Positions 1 through 15,810 of a DNA stretch of 64,000 nucleotides are shown here, in pieces (position 1 is the stretch's first letter; each line of letters begins with the position of its first letter). The stretch comes from an uncultured Bacteroidales bacterium. Lineage in GTDB: Bacteria; Bacteroidota; Bacteroidia; Bacteroidales; WCHB1-69. The DNA lies in contig CAJOFD010000007.1 in NCBI GenBank assembly GCA_905233585.1, forward strand, positions 6,684 to 70,683. Direction: 5' to 3'. A program made the position numbers and the translations under genes. Under the pieces are notes generated by a model. The model did not search any database. It worked only from the letters and a program-made list of their open reading frames with translations, and was not told the DNA's origin.

Positions 1-173
1 TTATCCTCGCCAAATGCATCATAAAACTCTTGGAATTTACTGTCATCCCAAGTTTCATGAACCGTCTCCAATGACGCTTCCGTTTTTTTGAGCTGGTCAT
101 TCAGATTATTTACAGTATCCTCAATTTTGTGTCGAAAATCTATCAACTCATCAAGATTGTTTATTACAGCCAT
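1..173 (-). CDS. Small helical WXG100/Esx-like protein (N-terminal part only; the gene runs off the window edge)
   Basis: ATG at 173, 8 nt after the stop of the FtsK-like gene. Hand translation: MAVINNLDELIDFRHKIEDTVNNLNDQLKKTEASLETVHETWDDSKFQEFYDAFGED... About 40 aa from the N-terminus it has W-x4-F-x2-F-x3-F spacing, as in S. aureus EsxA (WEGQAFSRFEEQF). The WxG glycine is Asp here. Confidence 0.45.
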   Translation of the reverse strand, partial: MAVINNLDELIDFRHKIEDTVNNLNDQLKKTEASLETVHETWDDSKFQEFYDAFGED

Positions 174-181
174 ATCCTTGG

Positions 182-3100
182 TTATTTATAAGGTTTAAAC
201 TTGGTTATTTCATTGTTGACGAAATTAAAATACAAAGCACGGAAATCAGAACTTGGGCGGCCGCTAACTTTTAATTTGTTTGCCGCTGCTGTTCCGACAA
301 CCTTGTTCGAATCATTTTCAGGCATCTGCAATGCTATTCTGTGATTGAACAGATTCAATGCACCTCTACCTATGCGAATCAAATTGCTCAGATTGTCCAC
401 CTGAAGCACTGTGAAAACGCCTAACGACGGTCCATCTTTCAAAATGGTTTCCAGCAATTTGCTACAATCTGAAGTACGATCACTAGAAGAACCACCCATG
501 TCAAACATCCTTCCTAATTGGAATGATGTAATGTGCAAATATACATGATGCATCTCTGATTCATCATCCAAATTTTTTCGATAATCAATTAATCCCTTCA
601 GATTTCCTAACACAGTTGAAACCTCATCCGCTTTCCTTGCGTCAAACCATTGAGAACTTTGCTTTATCGCTTCTATTTGTTCCGAATTGTACAAGGTCTG
701 CAATTCGTCATCATTACGCATAAAATTGCACAAAACAAAGGTTGCAGTATTATCATTATGTGCAATTGACTGCGACAAAAGTGAATAGTATGCAATTCTT
801 TTCGCCACGTCCTGTCGCCCACCAATGATGAGTATGTTATTATTAGACTCCTTGACCAATGGGACATAAACATCCGTTGCGGTTATGGCAATGCTTTCAC
901 CAACATATATACCGACTTCCTTAGGTATATTCGACATAACGAAGTGCTTCTCATCCATGATTTTTTTATTGAAATCCGGCAAATCTTTGCTTCTAAACAC
1001 ACGCATTGTCAGATTATCATCTACTTGTTCAAAGTGAGCCTTGGCATATGCGGATACACGTTCAAGCAACTCCCTTAAATCAGTAGATGCCTTGATAAAG
1101 AAGCCTCTGGTGATATTATTGGCATACTCCGAGCCGGATTCATCATTATAAATACACACACCTGTCTGAAGATGTGGTTTTGGAGTCTGCGACGGCCATT
1201 TCACCAGTTCACTGAAATCATTTGGGTCACTCTTGAACACAATTCTATTGGCAATCAAGTCACGAGGCAGAATGCTTTTCGAAGGCAGCTTTTGTGTCGC
1301 CAGAATAAGATTGATGCCAAATTTGCGGTACTCTTGAATGATTACATGTATGTAACGATTAGCTTCTTGGCTGATTTTATCGTTGTCAATTTCAAAAAGC
1401 TTTTGGAACTCGTCAATGATAACCAATAATCGTGGCACTATCATATCGGGGTTTCTCTCTTTAAGTTCAACAATGTTGGTTACATCATTATCCCGACACA
1501 AAGTCATCCTTCTGTCTCCTTCGGCTTTCAACTCCCTCAAAATACTTAGCCCAAACTCTCGTTCTGCCTCTGGTGCCACCACTCTTGCGTGAGGCAGCTT
1601 ATGTTGGGCATAAATATTGAACTCCACGCCGGAAAAGTCAAGCAAATACATCTGAAGTTCTTTTGGTGAATAGTGAATTGAGGCATTAGCAATAAGTGCA
1701 TGAAGGAAGACGCTTTTCCCAGAACCGGGAATACCAATGACGACTGCTGAATTTTGACCGCTCTCCTGTGTGATGTGAAGAGCTTGTGTCTGCATGTCCG
1801 TGGATATTCCAAACGGCACATCTATACGGTTAGCACTTTGCCCTGTCCACCATTCTTTTTCAGGGAGCATATAATCATTAAAGTGTAGCACAGTTTCCGT
1901 TTTCACCTCCATCTCTTGGTTAATCTTTCTTACCACATCCGAAAGGATATACTCCGGTAGGGTGTCATAATGGAGATTGTGTGACACAGATTCCTGATTA
2001 TTAGGATTCTCCTGAGCGAGGAGTTTAATCGTTTCACACGATATACTCTTAATGGCATTCTGCATGATATTGTATCCCTTGAGCATCTCTTCTGAACTGT
2101 TCACTACATCATTATTAACCATCACCACGACGGATACACCTGCTCGAGGTCCATTACGCATGATTTCCTCCAGTTTTCCCCACACTTCACTACCATAACC
2201 GCCCATAGGGACATCTTTCAAAACAAGGAGCTGATAAGCCTCTTTGTTCGTCTTACCCTTGTTGTAATCAGAAAGACAGGTAATTTCACCTTTTAACAGA
2301 TTTTGTATCACATTCTCAATGTGGACAGACAGCCCATTCAACAGCTTTAGGAAATCATCATAGCGTGAGATAATATGAAATACTTTTCTGTTCAGATTCT
2401 TAAAAATATTGCTCGTCCCCTCCATTTCATACAAATCAACCATAAACACGTGTGCTCCCCCATTGGGAACAGATGTCAACATTCTGCTTATCAACGTGTT
2501 CGTTATTCCGAAACACTCTTCTCGATGTTTTCTGTCATAAACCATCTGGATATTTCCTCCGCACAAAGTGTGGACATACGACCTTGTCTTAAACGAAACG
2601 GCTTCTTGAAAAAGAGGGTAACTCACTTCATCTTCACCAAGATAAAAAGTGCTTTGAACGTCATCCGAACGATTATTCAAATTATTCCAAACTAACGAAG
2701 TTGCAGGCGCAAGTTCATACCTATTTGGGTAAAGGGGCGGATTCTGTTCATAAAAATCATCGAAGACAGGATATAATGAAGCCATCACTTGCTTTTTCGC
2801 TTGTTCGTACAAACATCTATATTGAGTCTTCTTATCATCCACCTCCCTTAATGAACTTGATAGGTTTTGAGAACTGTGATGAGCAACTAACCGATATTGA
2901 TAGGTATTGTCCAATTTTCTCAAATCATCTTCATAAATTTTGTTAAATGTTGCGTATTCCCGCTCCAATCTACTCATTAAGTCTATCATTTGCACACAAC
3001 CAAACTGGTATTGTTCCAAAGAAACGTCAAACAACTCCTCTGAATAGTGCTTCGATATATGTGGCCTTTTAACAAGATAATGAGATCTTTTGAAAGTGTC

Positions 3101-3520
3101 AATAATTTGGAGGACATTCTGGGAGAATTCCGCAAAAAATCGTTCCGTGTCCTTAGCAAAGTCATACAATACAGTATCGTTTTGTGGTGTTATAACCACT
3201 TGGGGTTCGGGATCTGGTTTAGATGGTGCAGATTCCACTTCAGGAACGACATTTTCTTTCTGATTCAGGATCTGTACCCAATTAGAAGTCAATGGTGTGG
3301 TTGCAAGTACAATTCTATCTCCAGAATGAACGGGGCTATGCCCTTTCACTTTTCTTCCATTTACATACGTACCATGCTTACTCTGCAAATCTTCTATCTC
3401 ATACGTACCAGAATCCGTTTCGGTTATTTTTGCATGATGACGAGACACAGAAGATACATTAACAACAATATCATTCTCTGGTAATCGTCCTATTGTAACT
3501 GTTTTTGTATTGTTTTTCAT
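182..3520 (-). CDS. FHA-domain FtsK/SpoIIIE-family ATPase with three P-loop-like modules (EssC/EccC-like layout, no TM segment seen)
   Basis: 1112-aa ORF with an N-terminal FHA domain (TIGRLPENDIVV..SRHHAKI..SKHGTYVNGRKV). Walker A GIPGSGKS lies at nt 1712-1735 and Walker B LLVIIDEF at nt 1406-1429, followed by GINLILATQK, which is typical of FtsK/SpoIIIE. The flanking modules keep the pattern but have degenerate P-loops (LCGGN.., IIGGRQDVAKR). Confidence 0.85.
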   Translation of the reverse strand: MKNNTKTVTIGRLPENDIVVNVSSVSRHHAKITETDSGTYEIEDLQSKHGTYVNGRKVKGHSPVHSGDRIVLATTPLTSNWVQILNQKENVVPEVESAPSKPDPEPQVVITPQNDTVLYDFAKDTERFFAEFSQNVLQIIDTFKRSHYLVKRPHISKHYSEELFDVSLEQYQFGCVQMIDLMSRLEREYATFNKIYEDDLRKLDNTYQYRLVAHHSSQNLSSSLREVDDKKTQYRCLYEQAKKQVMASLYPVFDDFYEQNPPLYPNRYELAPATSLVWNNLNNRSDDVQSTFYLGEDEVSYPLFQEAVSFKTRSYVHTLCGGNIQMVYDRKHREECFGITNTLISRMLTSVPNGGAHVFMVDLYEMEGTSNIFKNLNRKVFHIISRYDDFLKLLNGLSVHIENVIQNLLKGEITCLSDYNKGKTNKEAYQLLVLKDVPMGGYGSEVWGKLEEIMRNGPRAGVSVVVMVNNDVVNSSEEMLKGYNIMQNAIKSISCETIKLLAQENPNNQESVSHNLHYDTLPEYILSDVVRKINQEMEVKTETVLHFNDYMLPEKEWWTGQSANRIDVPFGISTDMQTQALHITQESGQNSAVVIGIPGSGKSVFLHALIANASIHYSPKELQMYLLDFSGVEFNIYAQHKLPHARVVAPEAEREFGLSILRELKAEGDRRMTLCRDNDVTNIVELKERNPDMIVPRLLVIIDEFQKLFEIDNDKISQEANRYIHVIIQEYRKFGINLILATQKLPSKSILPRDLIANRIVFKSDPNDFSELVKWPSQTPKPHLQTGVCIYNDESGSEYANNITRGFFIKASTDLRELLERVSAYAKAHFEQVDDNLTMRVFRSKDLPDFNKKIMDEKHFVMSNIPKEVGIYVGESIAITATDVYVPLVKESNNNILIIGGRQDVAKRIAYYSLLSQSIAHNDNTATFVLCNFMRNDDELQTLYNSEQIEAIKQSSQWFDARKADEVSTVLGNLKGLIDYRKNLDDESEMHHVYLHITSFQLGRMFDMGGSSSDRTSDCSKLLETILKDGPSLGVFTVLQVDNLSNLIRIGRGALNLFNHRIALQMPENDSNKVVGTAAANKLKVSGRPSSDFRALYFNFVNNEITKFKPYK

Positions 3521-3553
3521 TCTTTTATTTTTTTGTTTTTCTCACAAGTTATC

Positions 3554-4096
3554 CTATGAACAACCTCTGCCAATAGCGACAATAATGGCAATAAAAATTA
3601 TAATCAAAATTATCGAACCAATACAGCCTATCGTATTGCCTAAATGATTTCCTATATTATCACCCATCTTCCTGCGAAATCCCACAGAAAAGTCATCCCC
3701 TTTTTTACGCACATCCGCAGAAATAATGTGTTCTTCTTTTTTTATGTTCATTTCTGAAGGAATGTCAACAAGTGGTCTGTTTTCATGTGGCGTTTGAGGT
3801 GTATACTGGGAGCTGGCAGGTTGTACAACCGTTTCAGGGATAGGGGTTTTCGTAGAAGAAAAATAGGTTTTCCATGGCAATGTTGTGTTGCCAATCCTAA
3901 CTACATCATTTACCGAAATCCGTACCGTTCCATTGATTCTCTTGCCATTCACATAGGTTCCGTTTGTACTATTAAGATCTGTCAATAGAAAAGCACCTGT
4001 GTTGTCTTGAGAAATCGTACAATGATTGCGCCCAACACAAGGGTCTTCGATGACAATGTCATTTGAGGTATTTCTGCCAATATTTACTTGCTTCAT
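3554..4096 (-). CDS. FHA-domain protein with a C-terminal membrane anchor
   Basis: 180 aa. FHA motifs: NIGRNTSNDIVI..GRNHCTI..STNGTYVNGKRI..RIGNTTLPWKTYF. There is a single hydrophobic segment at the extreme C-terminus (IGSIILIIIFIAIIVAIG). Confidence 0.8.
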   Translation of the reverse strand: MKQVNIGRNTSNDIVIEDPCVGRNHCTISQDNTGAFLLTDLNSTNGTYVNGKRINGTVRISVNDVVRIGNTTLPWKTYFSSTKTPIPETVVQPASSQYTPQTPHENRPLVDIPSEMNIKKEEHIISADVRKKGDDFSVGFRRKMGDNIGNHLGNTIGCIGSIILIIIFIAIIVAIGRGCS

Positions 4097-4109
4097 ATTT
4101 TTAATTTTA

Positions 4110-4964
4110 TTAATATCTCTTTTTTCTCATATATCCCTTAATATGGTTTGCAAACTCTTCGCATGACTGATAACGCTCCGACGGATCCTTCGCCAAAGCA
4201 CGTTCCACAATGAACTGTAGATTTTGTGTGATTGGCGGGTAAAAACTACTCATCTGCGGAGTGGGGGCATACTTGACTTTTTCCTTGATTTCCGCAATGT
4301 TTTGTCGTGGATTTGGATTATCAGAGGTGAATGGCAACGTGCCTGTCAGCATCTCAAAAAGCATGATGCCAAGGGAAAAAATATCGGAGAATACTCCAAC
4401 ACGTCTTTTTTCTGACTGTTCAGGAGGCATATAGGCAGGCGTACCATATCCTTCGCCTGTTGTGCTGGTACTGGCACTTGACATACGCGAGGCAATACCT
4501 AAATCAATGAGTTTCAGCTTTCCATTTGGCTGTATCATCACATTGTTGGCTTTAATATCCAAATGCAATATTCTCTTTTGGTGCAGATACGCCACGGTAT
4601 CCAGAATTTCCAAAAACATCGGCAATGCTTTCTGCTCCGGAATAAGACCTATCTCCCTGTAAATGTAATTCTCAAGACTTCTTCCTTCAATGAATTCCAT
4701 AACGATGAACATTTGCTCGGTTTCTTTCATGTCAATAAAATCCACCAGCTTAGGGATATTCGGATGTGTCAGATACAAGTACATCTGTGTTTCCTCAATG
4801 AATTTCTGCTTGATAACAATATTCTTGAAATGCCTAATCTTCAGTTCCTTAATGGCCACAGGAAAACCGCTGCGCAAGTCTATACCCCAATAGACCTTTG
4901 CGGTTCCACCCTCTGCAATCAGATGGTCAACATGATACCACGGTATTTTGGGCAAGTCGTTCAT
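4110..4964 (-). CDS. Hanks-type Ser/Thr protein kinase (kinase domain only)
   Basis: 284 aa. It carries a Gly-rich loop EGGTAKVYWG, VAIKEL lysine, catalytic loop HLDIKANNVM (non-RD), DLG in place of DFG, and GTPAYMPPEQ as the APE-like motif. Confidence 0.88.
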   Translation of the reverse strand: MNDLPKIPWYHVDHLIAEGGTAKVYWGIDLRSGFPVAIKELKIRHFKNIVIKQKFIEETQMYLYLTHPNIPKLVDFIDMKETEQMFIVMEFIEGRSLENYIYREIGLIPEQKALPMFLEILDTVAYLHQKRILHLDIKANNVMIQPNGKLKLIDLGIASRMSSASTSTTGEGYGTPAYMPPEQSEKRRVGVFSDIFSLGIMLFEMLTGTLPFTSDNPNPRQNIAEIKEKVKYAPTPQMSSFYPPITQNLQFIVERALAKDPSERYQSCEEFANHIKGYMRKKRY

Positions 4965-4969
4965 AACCG

Positions 4970-6034
4970 TTATTCTTTAGACATTTTAGTAGTATCGGTG
5001 GAAGGTGTAGGAGTGGGCGTGGGAGTACTTTCAGCATTGGACTTCTTGTCATTGGAATTTTCTATGGAGTTTGCAAATGCCTCCATAGCATCAACAATTC
5101 TCTGCTGCTCGTCATCGGATGCAGCATTATATTTGTCCTCAATTGTCTTTTTCGTGCCACCTGCACCCCATCCTTGCTTATTGCAGAAGTCTTTTTCATG
5201 CCCTTTTATACTTTTCAGCGTGTTGTTGAAAAGTCTTTTCCTTGAATCCCTTTGGGATTTTGCAAGTTGTGCTTTAGTTGTTTGCAATTCCGTTCGTGCA
5301 GCGGTCAATTCTTTATTCACTGTGTCCAACTGGTTCTTAAGTTGAGTTGCTTCTTTTTCTTTTGCTGTTTCTTTTTCTTTTGCTTTTTTGGCTGCTTCAG
5401 CTGCATCTGCTGCTGCTTTTTTGGCTGCTTTGGCTGCTTCAGCTGCATCTGCTGCTGCTTTTTTGTCTTTGGCAGACTCAGACTCTGCAGCTTTCCGTGC
5501 TGCTCTATCGGCTTCTGCTTGAGCTCTGTCGGCAGCGGCTTGTTTTTCCGCTGCTTCTTTTGCTGCTTTATCAGCTGCAGATTGGGCTTCAGCATATTCC
5601 ATTGCCGCTTTGTCATAGTCTCTCTGGGAATTCTGTATCTGTTGTTCAAGTTCTTGTTCTTGTTTTGTGTCGTTAAGACATACTCCCCATATAACACCTC
5701 CGATTAATAATAACACCACGCTGGCCACGGCCCATGTCCACCATTTGCGATAGAATGGAATGGGGACCATGGTCCTACCACCTCCAGCAGAGGCAAAGTA
5801 GCCTTGCCATGGCAAAACAATGCTGCCAATCTTCACCTCGTCGCCCGGACGGATGACTGTTTGTCCTGATATACGTTTTCCATTGACGAATGTGCCGTTG
5901 GTGCTGTTCAGATCCATTACAGTGAAATTTCCATTATCGTCCTGCACAATCTGCAGATGATTACGGCTTACTTTCTCATCATTTATAATGATGTTATTGT
6001 TCTCCTTACTTCTTCCGATGGTTATTACTTTCAT
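4970..6034 (-). CDS. FHA-TM-coiled-coil protein (Ala/Lys/Glu-rich extracytoplasmic region)
   Basis: 354 aa. The N-terminal FHA domain reads ITIGRSKENNNIIIN..SRNHLQI..STNGTFVNGKRI..KIGSIVLPWQGYF. A TM segment follows (WWTWAVASVVLLLIGGVIWGV), then a long A/K/E-rich heptad-like region and a Thr/Pro-rich tail. Confidence 0.8.
   Translation of the reverse strand: MKVITIGRSKENNNIIINDEKVSRNHLQIVQDDNGNFTVMDLNSTNGTFVNGKRISGQTVIRPGDEVKIGSIVLPWQGYFASAGGGRTMVPIPFYRKWWTWAVASVVLLLIGGVIWGVCLNDTKQEQELEQQIQNSQRDYDKAAMEYAEAQSAADKAAKEAAEKQAAADRAQAEADRAARKAAESESAKDKKAAADAAEAAKAAKKAAADAAEAAKKAKEKETAKEKEATQLKNQLDTVNKELTAARTELQTTKAQLAKSQRDSRKRLFNNTLKSIKGHEKDFCNKQGWGAGGTKKTIEDKYNAASDDEQQRIVDAMEAFANSIENSNDKKSNAESTPTPTPTPSTDTTKMSKE
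5390..5464. repeat. Perfect 33-nt direct repeat (5390-5422 and 5432-5464) inside the coiled-coil region
   Basis: ggctgcttcagctgcatctgctgctgctttttt occurs twice, separated by 9 nt. On the minus strand it encodes KKAAADAAEAAK twice. Confidence 0.9.
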
Positions 6035-6038
6035 AACT

Positions 6039-7223
6039 TTATTTTTTATTTGTTTTCTTGTGACTGTTTGATCTATTAAAAATTCGACGACCTTTCCATT
6101 TATTTAGGTCTCTTTCTGTGATTTCTATGTCTTTATTAATCAAAGAATCTGTTTTTTGTGCTTGTTGCAAGGAATTCTCGGCTTGTTGCAATGTTGTTTC
6201 GGCTGCTGTTTTCTTCTTATGTGTTGCCTTATTCAAATTATCTTTATTGGCCGTGGATTGTGTTTTCAGATTGGCAACTTTGGATTCCAAGTTTCGGATT
6301 TTGCTTTCCACAAAGGAGTCCCAAGAGAAAAGGGCAACCAAAGCCAGTACGACAATAATGACAGCGGCAATGATAATTCTTTTCAAGGATTTCCGAGATG
6401 TATGTCGTTTGGGGTTGAAACTCTCGTACTTGCTTTCTTTCCACGCACTGCCGTCCACTTGAATAAGTTCAACAGTGCAATTGTCCTGACCTCCGGGTTG
6501 AACAGTTTCACCCTCCATTGCAAGATTAATCAGCAAATTGCCTTTATCTTCCAATTTCGAGTTTTGTCGCAGTACCTTTTCTATTGTTTTGTCAGGAATC
6601 ATGCCGGAGAGGCCATCGCTACAAATGAGGAAGATGTCGCCATTTTTGGGCTGAATAGGATTGTTATTCGGATTGAAAGACGGCTGAAGATTTTGAGTTA
6701 CACCCAAAGCCTTGAGAATACGGTTCTTGTTGGGATGATGTTCCGCCTCATCGTCTGTTATTGTACCTGCATCGACCAAAGTTTGCACGTATGAGTGGTC
6801 TTTGGTGATACGATGCAGTTTCTTCTCCTTGCCGAGATAGAGGTATATGCGGCTATCACCCACATGGGCAATCCACACCTCACTTCCTTGCATCAGCACG
6901 ATGCAGGCAGTCGTACCCATGCCTTTATATTCAGGATAGTCATTGGCAAAACCAAGAATCTGCATGTTTGCAAATTGCAATGCACCATTGAGAGCGACAA
7001 GCGGATCTGAATACTTTTCTTTCTTTAGATAACTGATGATGCTATCCACCGCAAGCGAAGAGGCTTTGGCACCACCCACATGGCCACCCATACCATCACA
7101 CACCACAAAAACGTCACCATTGGGAGTGTCCAATGCCATATCGTGGCTGTCTTCCTGTGCCTTACGCACATTGCCAATAACACCCTTCTTGAAAATGTTG
7201 TTTCTATTGGTTACTAAACTCAT
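6039..7223 (-). CDS. PP2C (PPM) family Ser/Thr phosphatase with a TM segment and C-terminal coiled coil
   Basis: 394 aa. PPM motifs are VVCDGMGGHVGG, HVGDSRIY, LICSDGL and GGQDNCTV. A TM segment follows (IIIAAVIIVVLALVALFSW), then a heptad-like tail. Confidence 0.88.
   Translation of the reverse strand: MSLVTNRNNIFKKGVIGNVRKAQEDSHDMALDTPNGDVFVVCDGMGGHVGGAKASSLAVDSIISYLKKEKYSDPLVALNGALQFANMQILGFANDYPEYKGMGTTACIVLMQGSEVWIAHVGDSRIYLYLGKEKKLHRITKDHSYVQTLVDAGTITDDEAEHHPNKNRILKALGVTQNLQPSFNPNNNPIQPKNGDIFLICSDGLSGMIPDKTIEKVLRQNSKLEDKGNLLINLAMEGETVQPGGQDNCTVELIQVDGSAWKESKYESFNPKRHTSRKSLKRIIIAAVIIVVLALVALFSWDSFVESKIRNLESKVANLKTQSTANKDNLNKATHKKKTAAETTLQQAENSLQQAQKTDSLINKDIEITERDLNKWKGRRIFNRSNSHKKTNKK
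7069..7223. repeat. Copy A of a ~155-nt dispersed repeat (5' end of the PP2C gene)
   Basis: Hand alignment to 9645-9799 gives about 16 mismatches in 155 nt. The repeat ends at the shared start codon. Confidence 0.85.
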
Positions 7224-7247
7224 AACTGTATTTTTTATTATACTCCG

Positions 7248-8717
7248 TTATTCAATAAACCATGCTGGTTCGAGACTGCCGTCATTCTTCCATTTTATAA
7301 ATGACAGTTGTCCAAAATCAGGATGGAATTCAATTTCATTTTTCAAAGGATATTGTACCAACAATCTATGGTACTCCATGGCAAAGCTGTCCATATCTCG
7401 GAAACGATTTGTGGGATCAAATGCCAGACATTTTTCCAAGAAAGCCTTCCAATATGGAATACCCTCTTTGTTGTCAATATTTGAATCAGAATAATCAATA
7501 TAAATCATTGGTTCAACAAGCAGTTTTACATTTTTTGTTTTTATACCACCGGTTGGGATTATATAATCAGAAATTTTTCCATAGACAATCCCATCCACAA
7601 TAGAAAGAATAACCAGACCGAGATTATAGATATCTGTTGCAGGAGTTACCGGTTGTGTTAAAATTTGTTCTGGTGCACAGAAGTTGGTTGTCATGCCCGC
7701 TGAAACTTCTCCCATCTTTGTGCAGACAGGGTCAAATGGATGTAATCCGTCATGCAGACACAGTATGTTCTGAGGTTTCAGGTCGCAGTGAACATATCCA
7801 GACTTATGCAATTGCGACAAATCCTTGAACAAAGTCGTCAATGCGTTGGCTAATCGTTGCCTTGCCACTTTGTAATACACCGACAACTTATTGCCATTAG
7901 CAACCTGAACCATTTGTTTCTTGTATTCGTCAGCGTGAATATCCGTTGAACACACGGTATCACCCATTTTTTTTATCTGTACCGTTGGCTGAAAGATAGA
8001 GATGTCTTCACTTTGAAAACTCTCAATTGATTTGACCGATGTTGGATTATCTCTATCAGGCAGACACAAGACCTTGACCTGGCTGTCATGAAGAGAAATG
8101 GAGATATACTTTTTGCTTTCCACCTCCCGACGAGCATCTTGAAACTCTTTGCTCCCATATTCTTCTCCGTATGAAGCACATGCGGCGGTATTCATTGCCT
8201 TGCCTTCACACGAAGCGCTTCTATAACCATTTTCTGCATACAGATTGTCCAATTTGCTTCGCTCTCCCAAAATCTGCGTTAACAATGTCGCAGGAACTAT
8301 CGAACTGACAGTCCTGTCCGATAGGTAATAATTCCCTATAAGCCCATTTTGTATGTTATTAAATCGGTATATGTTTTTCTTCAACAACTCCTGATTAACC
8401 ATACTATCAATTTCCGACATTTTGCGGCTAATGGCGAGGGGAATATTACCTCGATCACAACCTAATACGGATGAGACTTTGTATTGCATATCTAATTCTT
8501 CCCTTTTCCTTTTAATCTCAATATATCTGTTTAAACCATCTGGAGCTGTATCAAACCGAAGGATAACATTAGCTTGTGCATTCAAGTCACTTGCTTGGTT
8601 TGAAATTGGATTAAAAACCGTACCTTCCACAATCTTTTCTGACTGCCGTTGTCCACAATGAGGACAATAATCTCCTTGATAATAGTGCCCGTTGGGACAT
8701 TGTTTGTACTCGCTCAT
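7248..8717 (-). CDS. Zn-ribbon protein with a C-terminal atypical protein-kinase-like domain
   Basis: 489 aa with an N-terminal CPNGHYYQGDYCPHCG. The C-terminal region has a catalytic loop VHCDLKPQNILC and FCAPEQ (APE). I could not recognise a Gly-rich loop or a DFG motif. Confidence 0.65.
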   Translation of the reverse strand: MSEYKQCPNGHYYQGDYCPHCGQRQSEKIVEGTVFNPISNQASDLNAQANVILRFDTAPDGLNRYIEIKRKREELDMQYKVSSVLGCDRGNIPLAISRKMSEIDSMVNQELLKKNIYRFNNIQNGLIGNYYLSDRTVSSIVPATLLTQILGERSKLDNLYAENGYRSASCEGKAMNTAACASYGEEYGSKEFQDARREVESKKYISISLHDSQVKVLCLPDRDNPTSVKSIESFQSEDISIFQPTVQIKKMGDTVCSTDIHADEYKKQMVQVANGNKLSVYYKVARQRLANALTTLFKDLSQLHKSGYVHCDLKPQNILCLHDGLHPFDPVCTKMGEVSAGMTTNFCAPEQILTQPVTPATDIYNLGLVILSIVDGIVYGKISDYIIPTGGIKTKNVKLLVEPMIYIDYSDSNIDNKEGIPYWKAFLEKCLAFDPTNRFRDMDSFAMEYHRLLVQYPLKNEIEFHPDFGQLSFIKWKNDGSLEPAWFIE

Positions 8718-8747
8718 ATCATAATATTATTATGTCATTAAAACTAA

Positions 8748-9320
8748 TCATTTACTGATTTTATGTTTCGTATATCTAATTGGTTGCTCTTTTCTGCCGT
8801 AAACATAAACCGTATAACCTTGAGGTGTATTATCTTCAGCCAATATTAAGGTATCTTTCGTGAGTTTTTTTATCTCATAAATCTCTTTTTGGGGGCAATA
8901 TAATACTAACACAGAATCGCATAATATCTCATACTTCACACCTGAAAGTAAATAAAGTTCACGGATTAGGTTGTTGAACTCAACTGTGTCAGCAACATTG
9001 TTGTTTGTCTTTTCATTAACGACCTCCTCGTTGTTTTCTTCCCAATAGACGACTTCCTCTTCATAAGATTCCTCAAAGGTGTTGTTAAAAGCTTCAGCAT
9101 CCACAAGTGCTTCTTCCACGACTTCTTCATCGTCCATAGAGTTAAAGACAATACATTTATTTTTGTCATACAGAACACCTTCAAGATATTCCTCATTCGA
9201 AGGTATTTGAACCTCTTGCAAATACCACGTTCCTCCTATTAGCTTTTGTTTGGATGATTGTGCGAATATGAATTCACCAACAATCACTAACAGAATAACT
9301 ATTATGGATGCTTTTTTCAT
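8748..9320 (-). CDS. Secreted acidic protein of unknown function
   Basis: The ORF is open to 9344 (GTG). ATG at 9320 gives a signal-peptide-like MKKASIIVILLVIVGEFIFAQ. The middle region is Glu-rich (EEVVEEALVDAE..EESYEEEVVYWEENNEEVV). The start is uncertain (9320/9329/9344). Confidence 0.55.
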   Translation of the reverse strand: MKKASIIVILLVIVGEFIFAQSSKQKLIGGTWYLQEVQIPSNEEYLEGVLYDKNKCIVFNSMDDEEVVEEALVDAEAFNNTFEESYEEEVVYWEENNEEVVNEKTNNNVADTVEFNNLIRELYLLSGVKYEILCDSVLVLYCPQKEIYEIKKLTKDTLILAEDNTPQGYTVYVYGRKEQPIRYTKHKISK

Positions 9321-9346
9321 ATTATACATCTTTACATTTTTCACTT

Positions 9347-9799
9347 CTATTGTTCCAACACTCTATAAAAACTCCCAGGCAAATACACATTCTTGATATC
9401 ATTCTCGATGGCTTTGAAGAACAACGGGGCAATTTCCTGCGGGGTGAAGCCTGCAATACCGCAGCCAATCTCTGTGACCAAGAAATCCAGTTCGCCATGC
9501 ACTGTGGCGAATTGCAGGAAATCATCCACGTAGGGTTTGATAGTTTCCACACCGCCCTGCATAGTCGGGATGGCGTATGTCTTTCCATACATGCCCACTC
9601 CCTTTCCCCATACAGCTCCGAAGTGCTCGTATGCCATACGGGCAGCCCCACCCACATGGCCCCCCATGCCGTCACACACCACAAAAACGTCACCATTCGG
9701 TGTGTCCAATGCCATGTCGTGACTATCTTCCTGTGCCTTTCGGACATTGCCGACAACGCCTTTCTTAAAAATGTTGTTTCTATTGGTTACTAAACTCAT
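9347..9799 (-). CDS. Chimeric ORF: duplicated PP2C N-terminus (52 aa) fused to a small phage-associated-type domain (YAIPT..GCGIAGF)
   Basis: The first 52 aa match the PP2C N-terminus with one I->V change. The remainder (ARMAYEHFGAVWGKGVGMYGKTYAIPT..FLVTEIGCGIAGFTPQEIAPLF) resembles, from memory, the family NCBI labels A1S_2505 phage non-structural protein. It lacks that family's own N-terminal strand. Confidence 0.6.
   Translation of the reverse strand: MSLVTNRNNIFKKGVVGNVRKAQEDSHDMALDTPNGDVFVVCDGMGGHVGGAARMAYEHFGAVWGKGVGMYGKTYAIPTMQGGVETIKPYVDDFLQFATVHGELDFLVTEIGCGIAGFTPQEIAPLFFKAIENDIKNVYLPGSFYRVLEQ
9645..9799. repeat. Copy B of the ~155-nt dispersed repeat (5' end of the chimeric ORF)
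   Basis: See copy A (7069-7223). Confidence 0.85.
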
Positions 9800-9845
9800 A
9801 ATAATGTTTTTAATTAATGTTCATATTGCTACCTCAAATGCCTTT

Positions 9846-10451
9846 TTAAAGGGTTGTTCTTTCGTCAAATAGTTTACTTTCATCATAATCGGAATAATAG
9901 TCCAACTGTTTTAAGATTGGAGAGTTTTGTAACACCTTTATCAAGTGTTTCAATTCATTTGCACTGAGGAAAACACGACCATTTTTATTTGTTATCTCAA
10001 CACCAGAAAGCACCGTATTGACACCTCCTTCTCCAGGAGACATCGTGCGTTCATGATGATTAAAGCCAGCAGCACATACTCTCACACGAGTTTGCCTTTC
10101 ACGATTATCCGGACCTGTTGACCCCATATCAATGTGCATTTCAATATTAAAGTCGTGTCCGCAGCTTTCGCATTTGCCATCCCAATGATAGTTCCACGGA
10201 ACAATGCGATCCCTTATGTCATATAGTGACGACACAACGATTCCAAATTCTGGCCGAGGAATTCCCTTTCTCAGTGGCTGTCCGCAATGAGGACAGGAGG
10301 GTATCGTCATCAATTCTGCAACATGTTGGTGTAAATATTCACGTCCATCAAAAGGATTAACGTTCCTGATTGAATAATACTGCGTCGGACAGTACGGACA
10401 CGTGTCGCCTTCATATAAGTGGCCTCGGGGGCATTGTTTTAGTGTGCTCAT
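9846..10451 (-). CDS. Multi-Zn-ribbon protein of unknown function
   Basis: 201 aa. The N-terminal CPRGHLYEGDTCPYCP is paralogous to the heads of the 489-aa and 205-aa proteins. Further Cys pairs are CPHCG and CESCGH. Confidence 0.6.
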   Translation of the reverse strand: MSTLKQCPRGHLYEGDTCPYCPTQYYSIRNVNPFDGREYLHQHVAELMTIPSCPHCGQPLRKGIPRPEFGIVVSSLYDIRDRIVPWNYHWDGKCESCGHDFNIEMHIDMGSTGPDNRERQTRVRVCAAGFNHHERTMSPGEGGVNTVLSGVEITNKNGRVFLSANELKHLIKVLQNSPILKQLDYYSDYDESKLFDERTTL

Positions 10452-10459
10452 ATTAATTT

Positions 10460-11071
10460 TTATTTAAACCCAGTTACTTTCCATTTGCCATTGATTTTTT
10501 CGAGCAAGACTTTCACGTTAGTATCACCATAGCGTGTTATATCTTGGAATCCGACATGATTAACTTCAGAAGTTGGACTACACGTTACATATACCTTTTT
10601 AATATTTATGCCAGCACGAGGTTCGCTTTCCCCTGGCAAATAAACCATACCGTTTTTAACATATTGCTCAATACCACCATACCTGCTTCCACCTTCCTCA
10701 TAATACCATTCGTCCTGAACATAGGCGATGGTGACCTCATATTCCCTGAATAATGCAGGAAGCCAAGATAAAATAGCAAGCTTCCCTGTAGAAAAGTAAT
10801 CCACAAGGGAATTTATACCATATTCACCATAATCTTTTCGAATGTAAGGATCTGTATAATATATCTTACCCCTAATATCCATATACGACCTCATCTTGTC
10901 AAAATCTTTTTGCAAGATCGCACATATAAAATTATAGGTAATGGCAGCAGGGGTTTTACATTCAGCGATTTCCTGATTGCTTAATCTTAGCACAATCGGA
11001 TTGGGGTATTGAGCATATAGGGTTCCCAAAAACATCACTGACAAAACGATAATTGCGAATAACTTTTTCAT
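10460..11071 (-). CDS. Secreted protein of unknown function
   Basis: 203 aa with a signal-peptide-like MKKLFAIIVLSVMFLGTLYAQ. It sits 8 nt from the next gene, and I recognised no motif. Confidence 0.55.
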   Translation of the reverse strand: MKKLFAIIVLSVMFLGTLYAQYPNPIVLRLSNQEIAECKTPAAITYNFICAILQKDFDKMRSYMDIRGKIYYTDPYIRKDYGEYGINSLVDYFSTGKLAILSWLPALFREYEVTIAYVQDEWYYEEGGSRYGGIEQYVKNGMVYLPGESEPRAGINIKKVYVTCSPTSEVNHVGFQDITRYGDTNVKVLLEKINGKWKVTGFK

Positions 11072-11099
11072 AAATCAAAATAAATTATAACAATGAATA

Positions 11100-12914
11100 T
11101 TAATTTTTCGTTGAAACTCTGGTCAGATTATCTGATCTGAAATCAGACTTTCCGTCATATTTCCATACAGACCATTGACCATCTTTTGCACACCCCCCAA
11201 TATAAAAAGAGTATCCATCTGTCACAACCGACATAGCCTGATACCTTAATTTATCATTTACTTGGAAACCTTCCCCATTGACCCAAACCATTGCATTTGA
11301 GTTAGGATTCTGTACAATTCCAGTCACAACAATCACCCCAGCATTGTTCACTGCAACAGATTGTGCACTACCATATTCCACATTTCCCAGAGATATAAAA
11401 TCACCATCCTTCCATAAAGCGGGTTTGTTATTCACTTCTCCTGCCACAAATATATCTCCTTTATCGGTGAGAAAAATAGAATTGGCACGACTCATCTCCA
11501 AATTATAAGCCACTTCCTCGCCATTTCCTCGTAACACATACAGAAAGGCTTCTCCAGAGAAATATTCACCTGTATATCCTGCCACATATATGTTATCTCC
11601 CTTTACAACCACCGAATTTGCAGATCCGCTTTCGCCTAAACTGTTCGGAACACCATTTTTCCACAGAGTGGGTTGTCCGTCTTTCTGTCCTGCAACATAC
11701 ACATCATTCCTATCTACATATACACAATTTGCCTCCGCTTGTCCCAAGCCCTCCGCCAACATTTGCCTCTCTCCATTCTTCCATAGCAGAGCCTCTCCTT
11801 TATCATTCTCATCTATCGTAACATATACATCATTACCTGAAACGAACACTGATGTTGCTTTATTAAAATTACCCATTTCTCCGATTTCTTGGGCAACACC
11901 ATTCTTCCATAATGTTGGAACATCAGTTTCTGACGTTTGTTCACAAGTGCTACCGACAGCATAAACGTCATTTCCCGAAACGAACACAGAATTAATATCG
12001 GTATAAGGTCTGCTTGTCTTACTGTCGGATTTGTGAAATAGCAATATTGCCACAACAATCACAACAGCAATAATGCTACCCAAAACAAGCCACAACCATG
12101 TTTTTTTCAACCCTTGCGTTTTTGCAGGGGTACTATGATCATACTCCAACAAATTCCAGCAGCTGACACCGTTCTTTTTGATTTGCAAGATAGCCCAAAG
12201 AATAATCAGTGATATTGGGGTTACTATTACCTGAATGATAGGATTTAGGTCAAGACTCAAACCTATTAACATGTAATCCTGCTTAACAAGGTTTATCATG
12301 ATTACATTGACAATGGCAAGTATTATTGCTGTAACAACAGCTCCCCAAAAGCCTATTTTCTTCCATTTCAAAAGCAAAGAGTAACTAATAATCATACAAA
12401 TCCCTCCTATTACGGAAACAATTTGCCAAATTAGAATATGAGGATGTATCGCCTCGGAAAACGGAGTAATATCTATGCCATTGGCAACAAGATCCATGCC
12501 TAAATACCCTAAATTTGTCAAGTTTTGATATGTAAACAGATTCAATATGATTCCTAAAACACTACTCACAATCCCAAGCCACAACCAAAATATCACAAAA
12601 CCATGACGTTCTTTAATGCGAGGAGCGTACGGGATTCCTGCTTCCGGTGCCACTGACGCAACTGTTTCAGAGTCTTCAAAGTATTGCTTCCATGGGATAG
12701 TACTATTGCCAATACGTACCACATCATTTATGTTCAGATTGATTTCCCCACTTATTTTCTGTCCATTAACGTATGTGCCGTTAGTACTTCCAAAATCCGA
12801 CAAGGTGAAATGCCCGTCATCATGTTGGATGATTTGCATGTGATGACGTGACGCATGCGGATCTTTAACCATCACATCGTTTTCTTCGCTTCTTCCTATT
12901 GTAATTACCTTCAT
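11100..12914 (-). CDS. FHA - polytopic membrane - repeat (beta-propeller-like) sensor protein
   Basis: ATG at 12914 (MKVITIGRSEEND..) fits the upstream stop at 12934. The FHA domain reads SRHHMQI..STNGTYVNGQKI..RIGNSTIPWKQYF. Several hydrophobic segments follow. After them come about seven ~40-aa repeats of the type SVFVSGNDVYAVG....PTLWKNG (nt ~11127-11969). Confidence 0.78.
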   Translation of the reverse strand: MKVITIGRSEENDVMVKDPHASRHHMQIIQHDDGHFTLSDFGSTNGTYVNGQKISGEINLNINDVVRIGNSTIPWKQYFEDSETVASVAPEAGIPYAPRIKERHGFVIFWLWLGIVSSVLGIILNLFTYQNLTNLGYLGMDLVANGIDITPFSEAIHPHILIWQIVSVIGGICMIISYSLLLKWKKIGFWGAVVTAIILAIVNVIMINLVKQDYMLIGLSLDLNPIIQVIVTPISLIILWAILQIKKNGVSCWNLLEYDHSTPAKTQGLKKTWLWLVLGSIIAVVIVVAILLFHKSDSKTSRPYTDINSVFVSGNDVYAVGSTCEQTSETDVPTLWKNGVAQEIGEMGNFNKATSVFVSGNDVYVTIDENDKGEALLWKNGERQMLAEGLGQAEANCVYVDRNDVYVAGQKDGQPTLWKNGVPNSLGESGSANSVVVKGDNIYVAGYTGEYFSGEAFLYVLRGNGEEVAYNLEMSRANSIFLTDKGDIFVAGEVNNKPALWKDGDFISLGNVEYGSAQSVAVNNAGVIVVTGIVQNPNSNAMVWVNGEGFQVNDKLRYQAMSVVTDGYSFYIGGCAKDGQWSVWKYDGKSDFRSDNLTRVSTKN

Positions 12915-12933
12915 AAATCCATGTGTGTTTGTA

Positions 12934-14457
12934 TTATACATAAAAAATAATGAGTGCTTCTCCCAAACCAATTATATCTCCGCTTTTTAGTGTGCATTGC
13001 TGGAAAAACTGTCCGTTTACAATAACACCTTGCGTGTATGATTTACTTTTGTTCGTTATATCAAACGCTGTCCCATTAAAAGTTATTTCAGCGTGAAATC
13101 CCGACACTGTCTTATTGTTAAGCACAACATCATTGTTTTCGTTGCGTCCGAGTGTCGTATGGATATTGTTTATAGTGTATGTGAATGATGTGTCAGGTAT
13201 TTTGCATTGTAGATGCGGAAACAGATTTTTCGTCTGCATAAGGTTTGTCAAACGTTTTTCCTTTTCAGCACGCTCTTTTTCAGCGGCTTCAGCGGCTATC
13301 CGTCTCTTTTCTTCCTCTTGCTGACGTTTCAACTCTTCCAATTGCTCGTTTGATTGGTCTATGCCCTTTTGAAGTATTTCATTTTTCTTGTTGCGTTCAG
13401 CAATGCTGCGGCGGATGAACCAAACAGAAAAAATAACAATAGCAATAAAAATCACCACAAAGACAATAAACAATGCCGTATTTTCCTCTATCCAATCACA
13501 AAATGTCATATCGGGAGCATTGAAAGCCGCCAACAACTGCGGTACTTTATTGACAGTAAGCCCTATACGATGGGGTTTACCATCTCTTTTGGCTTTTGTT
13601 GTGAAAGTTATTTCATAATCATTGCCATAGCAACGAGAGTCAAAATTATAATAATAGTTTCGCAAAACAGCAAGAGCTTCATTTACATCGCATGAAGATG
13701 CATGAAGACCATAAGTACTTTCCGATAGAGAATTTACCTCTGGAGCATCTCCAGCAAGAGGATATTTCACTACATAAATAGGAATATCTGCATCCAAAGC
13801 ATTTTTTCTAACACTTTCCATCTCTGTACTTGCCCCAGCCGCTTTCACATTGAGTCCAGCAGTTACTACAATAAGGATACAAGTACGATTAGATGGTTCT
13901 TTCTTTAATAATTCAATACCTTCATTAATAGCAAGATACAAATCAGATTGTTGGGAAAACTCTTTGAAAAATTCACTACTTCTAGTATAACTATATACTG
14001 TATCTTTCAATTGTCGAGAATCTGAAGAAAAAGATTTTAATAGAGGTTCGGTTACAGTCCGTTTGCTACTTTTTTTCCGATTGAACACTGCAACATTAAA
14101 CATATCGGAATCGTTCAATAAAGTTTCGTTAAAGAACCGAGATAGCAATTGGCGTGTAAATTCCGTCTGTTTACTATGACTAACCATGTCTTCCCATAAA
14201 AACAATATACTTTTGTTTTGATTGACATTGCCTTTGGAAAGCACTTTAAAATTAAAATCAATAGGCTGATTATCTTCATCTGTCAAAACGAATTGAGACT
14301 TATCAAGCACATCAGGATTGGCTGAATTCCATACAAATGAAATTTCCGGATATTTTTCAGTATTGTATTTACTTTTAAGACCTCTTGTATTTTGAGCCCA
14401 CAGTTGAGCCGTAAGCAAAAATGCACCGAATACAATATATAGATATACACGTTTCAT
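12934..14457 (-). CDS. Signal peptide - vWA-like domain - TM - coiled coil - C-terminal FHA protein
   Basis: ATG at 14457 (MKRVYLYIVFGAFLLTAQLWAQ). The vWA-like strand pattern has a degenerate MIDAS (LFLWEDMVSHS, ILIVVTAGLN, IPIYVVKYP). A TM segment follows (ALFIVFVVIFIAIVIFSVWFI), then an EEEKRR-rich helix. The C-terminal FHA domain reads TTLGRNENNDVVL..SGFHAEI..GVIVNGQ. Confidence 0.72.
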   Translation of the reverse strand: MKRVYLYIVFGAFLLTAQLWAQNTRGLKSKYNTEKYPEISFVWNSANPDVLDKSQFVLTDEDNQPIDFNFKVLSKGNVNQNKSILFLWEDMVSHSKQTEFTRQLLSRFFNETLLNDSDMFNVAVFNRKKSSKRTVTEPLLKSFSSDSRQLKDTVYSYTRSSEFFKEFSQQSDLYLAINEGIELLKKEPSNRTCILIVVTAGLNVKAAGASTEMESVRKNALDADIPIYVVKYPLAGDAPEVNSLSESTYGLHASSCDVNEALAVLRNYYYNFDSRCYGNDYEITFTTKAKRDGKPHRIGLTVNKVPQLLAAFNAPDMTFCDWIEENTALFIVFVVIFIAIVIFSVWFIRRSIAERNKKNEILQKGIDQSNEQLEELKRQQEEEKRRIAAEAAEKERAEKEKRLTNLMQTKNLFPHLQCKIPDTSFTYTINNIHTTLGRNENNDVVLNNKTVSGFHAEITFNGTAFDITNKSKSYTQGVIVNGQFFQQCTLKSGDIIGLGEALIIFYV

Positions 14458-14459
14458 TT

Positions 14460-15077
14460 TTAACAAGATGTTCTGAATTTAAAAACTGTTTTTCCCATAC
14501 GAATCTCATCACCATCTTGCAAATAACAAGGCTCCAAATCAATATCATTGTTATTCACAAAAGTTCCATGCGAAGATTGCTGGTCAGTAATGGAATATTT
14601 GCCTGCTCGGAAAAGAATAACGGCGTGTTTTGCTGATACCATGTTGTCATTAACAGTGATGTTGCATTCCATATCGCGTCCAATTATGTTGCGTCCCTCA
14701 TATAGTTTAAAGTCAACACCCATATTATCAAGAGTATATGAAACCAACCAACCTACCAATTTACGTGTGGTACGCCCCCCTTGCTTTCTTCCTTCTGGAG
14801 AAGGAACTCCTACATCATATTCATCACCAAAAACAGTGTGACTGCTTGGGCTCGGGTTAGAAACCACAGTTTCAGATTCTACCACAGCGGTTTTTGTCGT
14901 ACCACCAAAATTTCCCGGCATTGTTTCTGTTGGTGCTTGGCTATCTCCACCTCCAAAAATTTCAGTTTTTGCCGAAGTGGGACTTCCCCCCACATTTACA
15001 TTTCCCGTTTTGCAATAAGGACAAGTAGCTCCATGATAGTAATGACCATTAGGACATTGTTTAAATTCGTTTGCCAT
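14460..15077 (-). CDS. Zn-ribbon + FHA protein (first gene of the cluster)
   Basis: ATG at 15077 (MANEFKQCPNGHYYHGATCPYCK). A Gly/Pro/Thr-rich linker follows. The C-terminal FHA domain reads NIIGRDMECNITV..SAKHAVI..SSHGTFVNNNDI. Confidence 0.8.
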   Translation of the reverse strand: MANEFKQCPNGHYYHGATCPYCKTGNVNVGGSPTSAKTEIFGGGDSQAPTETMPGNFGGTTKTAVVESETVVSNPSPSSHTVFGDEYDVGVPSPEGRKQGGRTTRKLVGWLVSYTLDNMGVDFKLYEGRNIIGRDMECNITVNDNMVSAKHAVILFRAGKYSITDQQSSHGTFVNNNDIDLEPCYLQDGDEIRMGKTVFKFRTSC

Positions 15078-15104
15078 AATTATTTCCTTTTTAATAATAA
15101 AGTG

Positions 15105-15112
15105 CAAAGATA
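15105..15112 (-). promoter_or_regulatory. Bacteroidetes -7 promoter box (TATCTTTG) heading the FHA cluster
   Basis: The plus strand reads caaagata, so the minus strand reads TATCTTTG, matching the TAnnTTTG consensus. It lies 28 nt upstream of the ATG at 15077. Confidence 0.55.
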
Positions 15113-15200
15113 TATTTCAACATCTGATAAACCTCTACCGTACAGACAAGAACTTCTCTACATATTGTAGACAAAATATCTACAATATTGTCTGCAATTT

Positions 15201-15419: not shown

Positions 15420-15490
15420 ATTTTTCTACATATACCTCCAGTTCCCAAAGGCTAAAAACAAATAGAAACGTGGAACTGTATCTATATATC

Positions 15491-15802: not shown

Positions 15803-15810
15803 TATCTTTG
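15803..15810 (+). promoter_or_regulatory. Bacteroidetes -7 promoter box (TATCTTTG)
   Basis: Matches TAnnTTTG and lies 29 nt upstream of the ATG at 15839. Confidence 0.5.

Follow-up and report, generated by a model that had tools for sequence, protein, structure and literature searches.

A W-x-D hairpin protein of the WXG100 superfamily is encoded next to an FHA-FtsK ATPase in uncultured Bacteroidales and may serve a type VII-like export module

We analysed a stretch of 64,000 nucleotides from an uncultured Bacteroidales bacterium (contig CAJOFD010000007.1 of GenBank assembly GCA_905233585.1, positions 6,684 to 70,683; hereafter the window), at one edge of which a small open reading frame (ORF) follows the gene for an ATPase with an FHA domain and an FtsK-type motor domain. 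Positions 1-173 (minus strand) hold the first 57 codons of this small gene, beginning with an ATG at 173-171; its product is referred to here as the hairpin protein. The ATPase ORF (3520..182, minus strand) ends with a TAA at 184-182, and an 8-nt spacer (174..181, CCAAGGAT) separates this stop from the hairpin start, an arrangement that is similarly tight in 47 of 50 related loci and, to judge by its length, consistent with co-transcription of the two genes. An exact look-up of the ATPase identified three metagenome contigs (L001-L003) whose sequence agrees with the window at 100% identity across a 400-nt overlap and continues past its edge. These contigs supply the 34 codons lying beyond the window and give a complete protein of 91 aa, MAVINNLDELIDFRHKIEDTVNNLNDQLKKTEASLETVHETWDDSKFQEFYDAFGEDKEKIIPLTKVFDEYQGEILLNLQHKIEDYLGQSF, whose gene occupies positions 13348-13623 of L001. 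The protein has the small size of WXG100 proteins (about 100 residues, without a signal peptide), and no hydrophobic segment was detected in it by a transmembrane (TM) scan. Since identical contigs complete the ORF and a family of the same length occupies the same position in 47 of 50 loci, we conclude that it is a real gene and not a chance frame.

An initial annotation of the window had likened the visible part of this ORF to EsxA of Staphylococcus aureus. Its start codon, 8 nt past the ATPase stop, is exact in the sequence, its 57-residue translation matches the reverse strand of window 1-173 letter for letter, and the EsxA sequence it quoted is identical to that of PDB 2vs0. The EsxA-like spacing is also present: W43, F48, F51 and F55 of EsxA correspond to W42, F47, F50 and F54 of the hairpin protein, one residue earlier, and W42-D43-D44 replaces W-x-G as described. 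The annotation had further noted a helix-like run of 40 residues free of Gly and Pro; the stretch exists, but its length had been misjudged and is really 54 residues, the first Gly being residue 55 and no Pro being visible. The FtsK-like ATPase named as the upstream neighbour was recovered by Pfam, which found FHA and FtsK_SpoIIIE domains in that ORF.

The relationship of the hairpin protein to solved Esx structures is visible only with a deep alignment. Searches of the PDB with the single sequence, or with a shallow profile built from close relatives only, gave no significant match, and a word-indexed homology search reached only relatives that were at least 71% identical. An exhaustive hidden Markov model (HMM) search covering 1.84 billion representatives was needed to collect the family, which comprises about 86 clusters, nearly all of 88-101 aa. 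A profile of the resulting alignment of 80 members matched, over the full length, Bacillus anthracis EsxB (PDB 4j42; E 7.9e-7, positions 1-86 on 4-88), Streptococcus agalactiae SAG1039 (3.4e-6), S. aureus EsxA (2vs0; 6.1e-6) and Helicobacter pylori HP0062 (5.7e-4). In these alignments the family Trp falls on Trp and the family Asp on the Gly of W-x-G, and the same register was obtained when the family was compared with S. aureus EsxA by hhalign (92.5% probability, E 4.8e-7). Taken individually, 60 of the 80 members matched Pfam WXG100 at E<=0.01, with a best E-value of 1.6e-7.

Within the alignment, W42 is kept in 79 of the 80 members, F47 in 74, F50 in 77, F54 in 79, L76 in 72 and Y86 in 66. 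The W-x-G turn motif that characterises WXG100 proteins is not found here, the third position being Asp in 79 members and Gly in one. Because the Asp is so nearly invariant, the replacement of Gly is a trait of a W-x-D subfamily rather than a defect of this protein; that W-x-G is not strictly required can also be seen from HP0062, which has W-R-D, and from a Caballeronia protein annotated as WXG100 by the Prokaryotic Genome Annotation Pipeline (PGAP), which has W-Q-D. An AlphaFold2 model computed from the family alignment (mean predicted local distance difference test score, pLDDT, 89.4) consists of a helix at residues 2-38, a loop at 39-44 containing W42-x-D44 and a helix at 45-87. Almost all of the top ~40 PDB matches of this model in Foldseek were Esx/WXG100 structures, with template-modelling scores of 0.65-0.84; the Foldseek E-values were weak (at least 0.08), as expected for a hairpin. 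Translation, identical contigs, profile and model thus place the gene in the WXG100 superfamily. Homology and the predicted hairpin fold are well supported by the profile comparisons and the model, and we consider it very probable that the hairpin protein is a WXG100-superfamily homologue. The suggestion in the initial annotation of a divergent member of this superfamily has therefore held: the full-length protein, at 91 aa, is not far above 100-130 aa, WXG100 matches were obtained by way of the family profile, and a helix-turn-helix hairpin was predicted. The role of substrate or adaptor that it also proposed is putative; the host is diderm and not Gram-positive, and the neighbouring ATPase differs from EssC in lacking membrane helices and having a single active P-loop.

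The neighbouring ATPase (182..3520, minus strand) is a soluble protein of 1112 aa. It begins with an FHA domain (residues 8-72) that keeps the GR...SRxH...NG signature when read against established FHA motifs, and continues with a coiled coil (about 125-259), a degenerate P-loop domain (about 290-530), an FtsK_SpoIIIE domain (554-744) and a second degenerate P-loop domain (about 840-1112). Only the middle one of the three P-loop domains was found by Pfam; this active domain carries the single Walker A motif (GIPGSGKS at 596) and the single Walker B motif (LVIIDE at 699). A comparison by hhalign relates the two flanking regions to each other (67%, E 5e-5); it also aligns the C-terminal region colinearly with the middle domain, but weakly (E 0.015), with GGRQDVAK at the place of Walker A. 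The closest PDB relatives are EccC of T. curvata (7.8e-17), EccC5 and YukB of Bacillus subtilis, whereas FtsK DNA motors reach only about 3e-6. The best NCBIfam models are EssC, EccCb and EccCa, all far under their equivalog cut-offs (77 vs 778 bits). An AlphaFold2 model of the ATPase is confident only for the FHA domain, the coiled coil (125-259) and the first P-loop-like domain, and was used solely for a domain-level Foldseek search, in which EssC/EccC tandem ATPases came first (E about 1e-11, about 500 aligned columns). By these sequence and motif comparisons the ATPase most resembles EccC/EssC, the motor type of type VII secretion systems (T7SS). It fits a class of three-domain ATPases in which the middle domain is active, and it departs from canonical EccC/EssC, in which a membrane anchor and several nucleotide-binding domains are present.

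ATPase homologues with at least 45% identity form about 50 clusters, the named ones being 'MAG: FHA domain-containing protein [Bacteroidales bacterium]', where MAG stands for metagenome-assembled genome. A scan of genomes with the single ATPase sequence found nothing, but a scan of GTDB species representatives with an ATPase alignment succeeded and yielded the 50 loci on which our linkage count is based. Almost all of them are Bacteroidales/Bacteroidia MAGs from rumen and gut, among them Alistipes, Alloprevotella, Prevotellaceae, Muribaculaceae, Porphyromonadaceae, Paludibacteraceae and others, and the 50 include no cultured isolate. In 47 of the 50, the gene immediately after the ATPase gene, on the same strand, encodes a family member of 82-102 aa; of the other three loci, two are truncated contigs and one is a distant Amycolatopsis match. 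Family members in the linked loci share 25-40% identity, and the ATPase-hairpin arrangement is kept in three distant metagenome loci (L009-L011, about 30% identity). In most Bacteroidales loci the ATPase gene is followed by a tandem pair of hairpin paralogues, reminiscent of an EsxA/EsxB pair, whereas the subclade of the window has one hairpin gene followed by larger proteins headed by a W-x-D (WXD) domain. Three loci bear the labels of Clostridium, Clostridiales or Bacilli MAGs, which could reflect mis-binning or transfer.

Outside this group, the family HMM matched the W-Q-D protein mentioned above, which is encoded on Caballeronia plasmid pSBC2-5, named 'WXG100 family type VII secretion target' by PGAP and scored at 30.8 bits by Pfam WXG100, above the cut-off. 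The surrounding module (L062) contains genes for vWA, the WXG100 protein, a 436-aa protein, further ORFs, FtsK, CARF, vWA, PP2C, a Ser/Thr kinase (STK) and AAA. A W-G-D protein on a plasmid of Helicobacter sp. NHP19-012 (L063) was matched at 33 bits. Relatives are thus carried by plasmids in Caballeronia and Helicobacter, and one related cluster is chromosomal, adjoining rpoA/rplQ. In L009 (6103-8858), a GYF-FtsK ATPase is accompanied by three tandem small WXG/WXD ORFs, after which come E2-CBASS-like, Prok-JAB and ThiF (E1-like) genes; the latter three make up a ubiquitin-like conjugation module such as defence systems contain.

The genes that follow the hairpin gene were read from L001. Next come a 258-aa helical protein with a Cys motif, a 164-aa protein carrying W-R-D and one of 198 aa that is related to the hairpin family at its N-terminus (hhalign 96%, E 3.3e-9). 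The 258-aa protein has no profile relation to the hairpin family; it shares only a short motif match with the Caballeronia 436-aa protein (E 8e-4) and gave no match to the Helicobacter toxin described below. A natural fusion (P0096) joins a hairpin domain to a homologue of this 258-aa protein, that is, to the product of the next gene. Further downstream lie genes for an FHA-TM-subtilase, a protein resembling the substrate-binding domain of HSP70 and another kinase. The first of these (15740-18019) encodes 759 aa with an FHA domain, one TM helix, a fervidolysin-type propeptide and an S8 subtilase domain, and as a membrane-anchored subtilase it resembles, by analogy, the mycosin MycP of mycobacterial ESX systems. 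The second (18090-19130, 346 aa) has only the HSP70/DnaK substrate-binding part (profile positions 326-474) and no ATPase domain.

Across the subclade of the window, downstream ORFs encode proteins of 131-563 aa whose WXD-type N-terminal domain is joined by a Gly/Ser/Ala-rich linker to C-termini that vary greatly. One of these is a 452-aa protein in a sister locus (L031, 10507-11865), in which the WXD N-terminus is joined to PF15644, 'Papain fold toxin 1, glutamine deamidase' (E 8.3e-18, 66 bits, cut-off 24.1). An ORF of 79 aa begins 5 nt after this gene, at the position of an immunity gene; it has no family match and is a candidate immunity gene. On the Helicobacter plasmid, the W-G-D hairpin gene is followed by a gene for a 340-aa protein ending in a WHH HNH-nuclease toxin, a SUKH-1 immunity gene, a 77-aa ORF and the FtsK ATPase gene. 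The combination of toxin and immunity ORF known from T7SS occurs in sister loci and not in the locus of the window itself. This downstream layout is the architecture of exported polymorphic toxins, and the Bacteroidales WXD-toxin fusions appear to be previously undescribed. Among motifs noticed by eye, a PLA2-like HDxCY motif in L026 was dropped for want of Pfam support (E 0.54), and HExxH motifs in P0045 and L016 are by-eye sightings only.

On the other side of the ATPase gene, the cluster continues on the minus strand and spans positions 182-15107 of the window. In reverse order of its genes, the ATPase is preceded by a 180-aa protein that starts with an FHA domain and ends in a membrane anchor (3554..4096; Pfam, TM scan), a 284-aa Ser/Thr protein kinase (4110..4964; Pfam Pkinase, 1.7e-52), a 354-aa protein with an FHA domain, one TM helix and an Ala/Lys/Glu-rich coiled coil (4970..6034; Pfam, TM scan, low-complexity repeats) and a 394-aa PP2C-type phosphatase with one TM helix and a coiled-coil tail (6039..7223; Pfam PP2C_2 and PP2C, TM scan). 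The Ala/Lys/Glu-rich segment of the 354-aa protein is encoded by imperfect short tandem repeats at 5347-5577. A 489-aa protein (7248..8717) follows, with a zinc-ribbon-like N-terminus and a partial kinase domain that covers the C-lobe (Pfam Pkinase, 1.6e-13, profile positions 87-253 only). Beyond it are a protein of about 604-623 aa with an FHA domain, five TM helices and a large non-cytoplasmic repeat domain (11100..12971; Pfam, TM scan), which is a candidate membrane component, and a 510-aa protein (12934..14466; Pfam, sequence) with a signal peptide, an extracytoplasmic domain, a TM helix, a coiled coil and a C-terminal FHA domain (437-502). The first gene of the cluster (14460..15107) encodes 215 aa with a zinc-ribbon-like N-terminus and a C-terminal FHA domain (141-205; Pfam), and the order is the same in L005-L008. 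The core order FHA-FHA-FHA-PP2C-FHA-STK-ATPase-hairpin is retained in other MAGs.

Positions 8748..11071 hold four clade-specific ORFs (198, 150, 201 and 203 aa; minus strand) that have no Pfam matches above noise. Two of them have signal-peptide-like N-termini, and one is a chimera with a duplicated 5' end of the PP2C gene. The duplication is a 172-nt direct repeat of 88% identity (7069-7240 and 9645-9816), by which the PP2C 5' end was copied before the 150-aa ORF (9347-9799, minus strand); the first ~52 residues of that ORF correspond to the PP2C N-terminus and the other 98 are without a Pfam match. Since this block is missing from the related clusters L005 and L007, it looks like an insertion or rearrangement, probably together with the 489-aa kinase-like gene. 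The G+C content of the cluster (0.35-0.43 in window 1-16000) exceeds that of positions 16001-64000 (0.30-0.38), which could point to acquisition by horizontal transfer, but neither an integrase nor a tRNA gene turned up anywhere in the window. Outside the cluster, the window consists of ordinary Bacteroidota chromosomal sequence whose outer-membrane genes include OstA/LptD, a TonB receptor, POTRA/ShlB and a C25 peptidase; the host is therefore diderm.

The closest known counterpart of the hairpin protein is HP0062 of H. pylori (PDB 3FX7, 2GTS), an ESAT-6-like protein with 'WRD' in the hairpin bend whose gene is clustered with one for an FtsK/SpoIIIE protein (PMC3397514). Both proteins have about 86-91 aa, a hairpin fold, W-x-D, an FtsK/SpoIIIE neighbour and a Gram-negative host, and lack a signal peptide; HP0062 also gave the highest structure-based identities to the hairpin model in Foldseek (18-22%, TM-scores 0.80/0.84). 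It belongs to another phylum. The Bacteroidales loci go beyond it in that their ATPase bears an FHA domain and is accompanied by numerous FHA membrane proteins, kinases, a phosphatase and several WXD-domain paralogues. With EsxA/YukE (sagEsxA-like) of T7SSb, the hairpin protein shares its length, the hairpin, the W(+5)F(+3)F(+4)F spacing, a full-length profile match and an EssC-type ATPase neighbour, and the T7SSb loci likewise encode larger proteins with a related N-terminal helical domain and toxin C-termini (LXG-like logic). It differs from EsxA/YukE in Asp for Gly, a sub-cut-off score, a TM-less ATPase with one intact P-loop and a diderm host, and from T7SSb in that Pfam detected no EssA/EssB/EsaA/EsaB homologues.

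Two published surveys describe related gene sets. Zhang et al. (2012; PMC3482391; Biol Direct 7:18, Table 1 footnote 6) listed Bacteroidetes among the Gram-negatives with 'mobile versions of T7SS', in which solo WXG proteins accompany a three-domain YueA-like ATPase with only the middle domain active. The locus of the window, with its three-domain, middle-active ATPase in Bacteroidales MAGs, fits this class, except that Bacteroidales WXD proteins are fused to a toxin domain and the clusters look chromosomal. The LDXD domain of the same authors was considered as a lead and set aside, being restricted to Firmicutes. Beyond that footnote, we found no paper describing a T7SS-like system in Bacteroidota. 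The T7SSc-j of Garrett et al. (2024; PMC11217815) comprise WXG100 proteins, an FtsK-type ATPase often with an FHA domain, a membrane Ser/Thr kinase, PPM/PP2C, FHA proteins and small WXG100-like partners, a part list shared with the Bacteroidales cluster. They differ in their membrane-bound ATPases with four NTPase domains and in their Bacillota or Actinomycetota hosts, and the YukD-like ubiquitin protein common among them was not seen in the Bacteroidales cluster. The same paper cites the phospho-control of type VI secretion systems (T6SS) as an analogy; there, Thr phosphorylation by a membrane kinase, with a phosphatase and an FHA protein, gates the assembly of a Gram-negative secretion system. 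The likeness of the Bacteroidales cluster lies in regulatory logic only, and no T6SS structural genes are present. The combination of a W-x-D WXG100 protein with a T7SS-like module was thus foreshadowed by HP0062 and the 2012 footnote, whereas the FHA-rich architecture with a TM-less ATPase is unusual.

What is directly supported, namely the homology, the predicted fold, the strict gene linkage, the kinship of the ATPase and the toxin-type fusions in related loci, can be arranged into a model of export. In this model two copies of the hairpin protein would associate, or one copy would associate with a larger downstream protein through that protein's homologous N-terminal domain, in either case giving a helical bundle. 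The tandem paralogue pairs in most loci are suggestive of such dimer partners. In T7SSa, the last domain of EccC recognises EsxB; by the same principle, the soluble FHA-FtsK ATPase might recognise the bundle through its C-terminal degenerate domain. Hydrolysis of ATP at the single intact P-loop would then power export of the bundle together with the attached variable C-terminal effector domains, and FHA-anchored membrane proteins would provide the conduit. In Pseudomonas, T6SS is controlled by Fha1/PpkA/PppA, and here Ser/Thr phosphorylation by two kinases, balanced by one PP2C and read by many FHA domains, could gate assembly. Dimerisation, recognition by the ATPase, export, phospho-gating and the membrane conduit are steps that we infer. 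We favour, with moderate confidence, the view that the hairpin protein acts, in the manner of EsxA, as the small partner or co-substrate within a type VII-like export module of a diderm Bacteroidales bacterium; that it works in protein export at all we hold with marginally less assurance, and mainly because the fusions show the architecture of exported polymorphic toxins.

Several observations weigh against this interpretation. The single hairpin sequence scores below the cut-offs of both Pfam PF06013 (E 7.8e-4; 20.1 bits, cut-off 27.3) and NCBIfam TIGR03930 (17.5 bits, cut-off 44.85). The C-terminal HxxxD/ExxhxxxH pattern of WXG100 proteins (Poulsen et al. 2014) is only partly retained: in register 76/80/83/87 it is strict in 19 of the 80 members and present in 42 when Q or N is allowed, the hairpin protein itself having Q at 80, and a second register fits 26. 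The ATPase model is of low confidence past residue 539, and the TM scan detected no clear TM helix in the ATPase or in 32 homologues, whereas EccC/EssC are membrane-bound. Pfam gave no match to other T7SS core components (EccB/D/E/MycP, EssA/EssB/EsaA/EsaB-YukD) in the cluster of the window or its L001 continuation, and it recognised no toxin domain at the locus of the window itself. The model offers no route across the outer membrane of the host (LptD/OstA, TonB receptor, POTRA); the Caballeronia relative lies amid vWA, CARF, PP2C and STK genes, fitting an intracellular conflict system; and secretion itself is inferred.

The serious alternative, which we consider unlikely, is that a WXG100-like hairpin stays inside the cell as an adaptor or regulator of the FHA-FtsK ATPase in a system for conflict or defence that works by phospho-signalling; such a system might, for instance, release or activate toxin-domain effectors within an infected cell. 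The ATPase is soluble, signalling parts dominate the cluster (seven or more FHA domains, kinases and PP2C), the Caballeronia plasmid relative adjoins CARF, vWA, PP2C, STK and AAA genes, and the related cluster in L009 adjoins E2-CBASS/JAB/ThiF. PADLOC also gave domain-level matches, of the ATPase to SspH/mad8 and of the kinase to PD-T4-6/mad6, but these are generic P-loop and kinase matches, at 50 bits against 77 for the EssC model, and none falls on the hairpin, FHA or PP2C proteins; the cluster was therefore not assigned to a known defence system. An intracellular role also sits poorly with the many membrane-anchored cluster proteins that have large non-cytoplasmic parts. Moreover, a targeting-type N-terminal domain, a linker, a variable toxin and a small ORF are the signature of exported polymorphic toxins, and SUKH immunity proteins are typical of inter-bacterial toxins. 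On these grounds we retain export as the favoured reading.

Some Esx proteins in Streptomyces are reported to have envelope or developmental roles, and a physiological, non-antagonistic function of that sort, for instance in envelope or developmental regulation, would suit a locus without a recognisable toxin and a relative whose cluster is chromosomal beside rpoA/rplQ. Roles of WXG100 proteins in sporulation are likewise reported for Bacillus cereus (PMC11406982). Such a function is nonetheless improbable here, given the toxin-domain fusions and immunity-like ORFs in sister loci and the strong variation of C-termini among close relatives, which indicates conflict rather than housekeeping. The weak Foldseek E-values of the hairpin model (at least 0.08), the empty PDB searches with single-sequence and shallow-alignment queries and the name 'prefoldin subunit 5' given to one relative in one source might have suggested a chance short ORF or a generic coiled coil beside the DNA translocase of a mobile element. 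That reading we regard as effectively refuted and its probability as negligible: length, position and motif are kept over 47 loci at 25-40% identity, the full-length, in-register profile matches are specific to Esx proteins and extend to the hhalign match with EsxA, the ATPase is by score much closer to EccC/EssC than to FtsK motors, and Pfam found no relaxase, integrase or replication gene in the cluster.

Type VII secretion and WXG100 proteins are treated as a speciality of Gram-positive bacteria and mycobacteria, and Bacteroidales are thought to fight their neighbours mainly through T6SSiii and secreted bacteriocin-like toxins. Dozens of uncultured Bacteroidales species from gut and rumen have kept the cluster described here, and its EsxA-like hairpin, EccC-like motor and toxin-type fusions suggest a further inter-bacterial weapon in a dominant gut phylum. 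A more specific proposal, which we put forward tentatively and hold to be somewhat doubtful, is that a hitherto uncharacterised, phosphorylation-gated type VII-like pathway in gut and rumen Bacteroidales exports polymorphic toxins headed by W-x-D domains, with the soluble ATPase docking on FHA membrane proteins rather than sitting in the membrane. If true, this would be a new secretion-system architecture in diderm bacteria, alongside T6SSiii and the type IX secretion system (T9SS). The cluster would also offer a natural experiment, in which an Esx-type motor without its own membrane anchor would have to work across two membranes. Finally, the near-invariant Asp in place of a 'diagnostic' Gly shows that the fold can do without W-x-G, a point of use when such genes are annotated.

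Two features elsewhere in the window are recorded for completeness. At 24584-29587 (plus strand), a gene encodes 1667 aa comprising a Peptidase_C25 (gingipain-family) domain and, at the C-terminus, Ig-like domains, a typical surface or secreted protease of Bacteroidota. At 58952-59138 (plus strand), a full-length cobalamin riboswitch (RF00174, 111 bits) lies directly upstream of a TonB-dependent receptor gene (59194-61239), which is an ordinary arrangement for B12 uptake.

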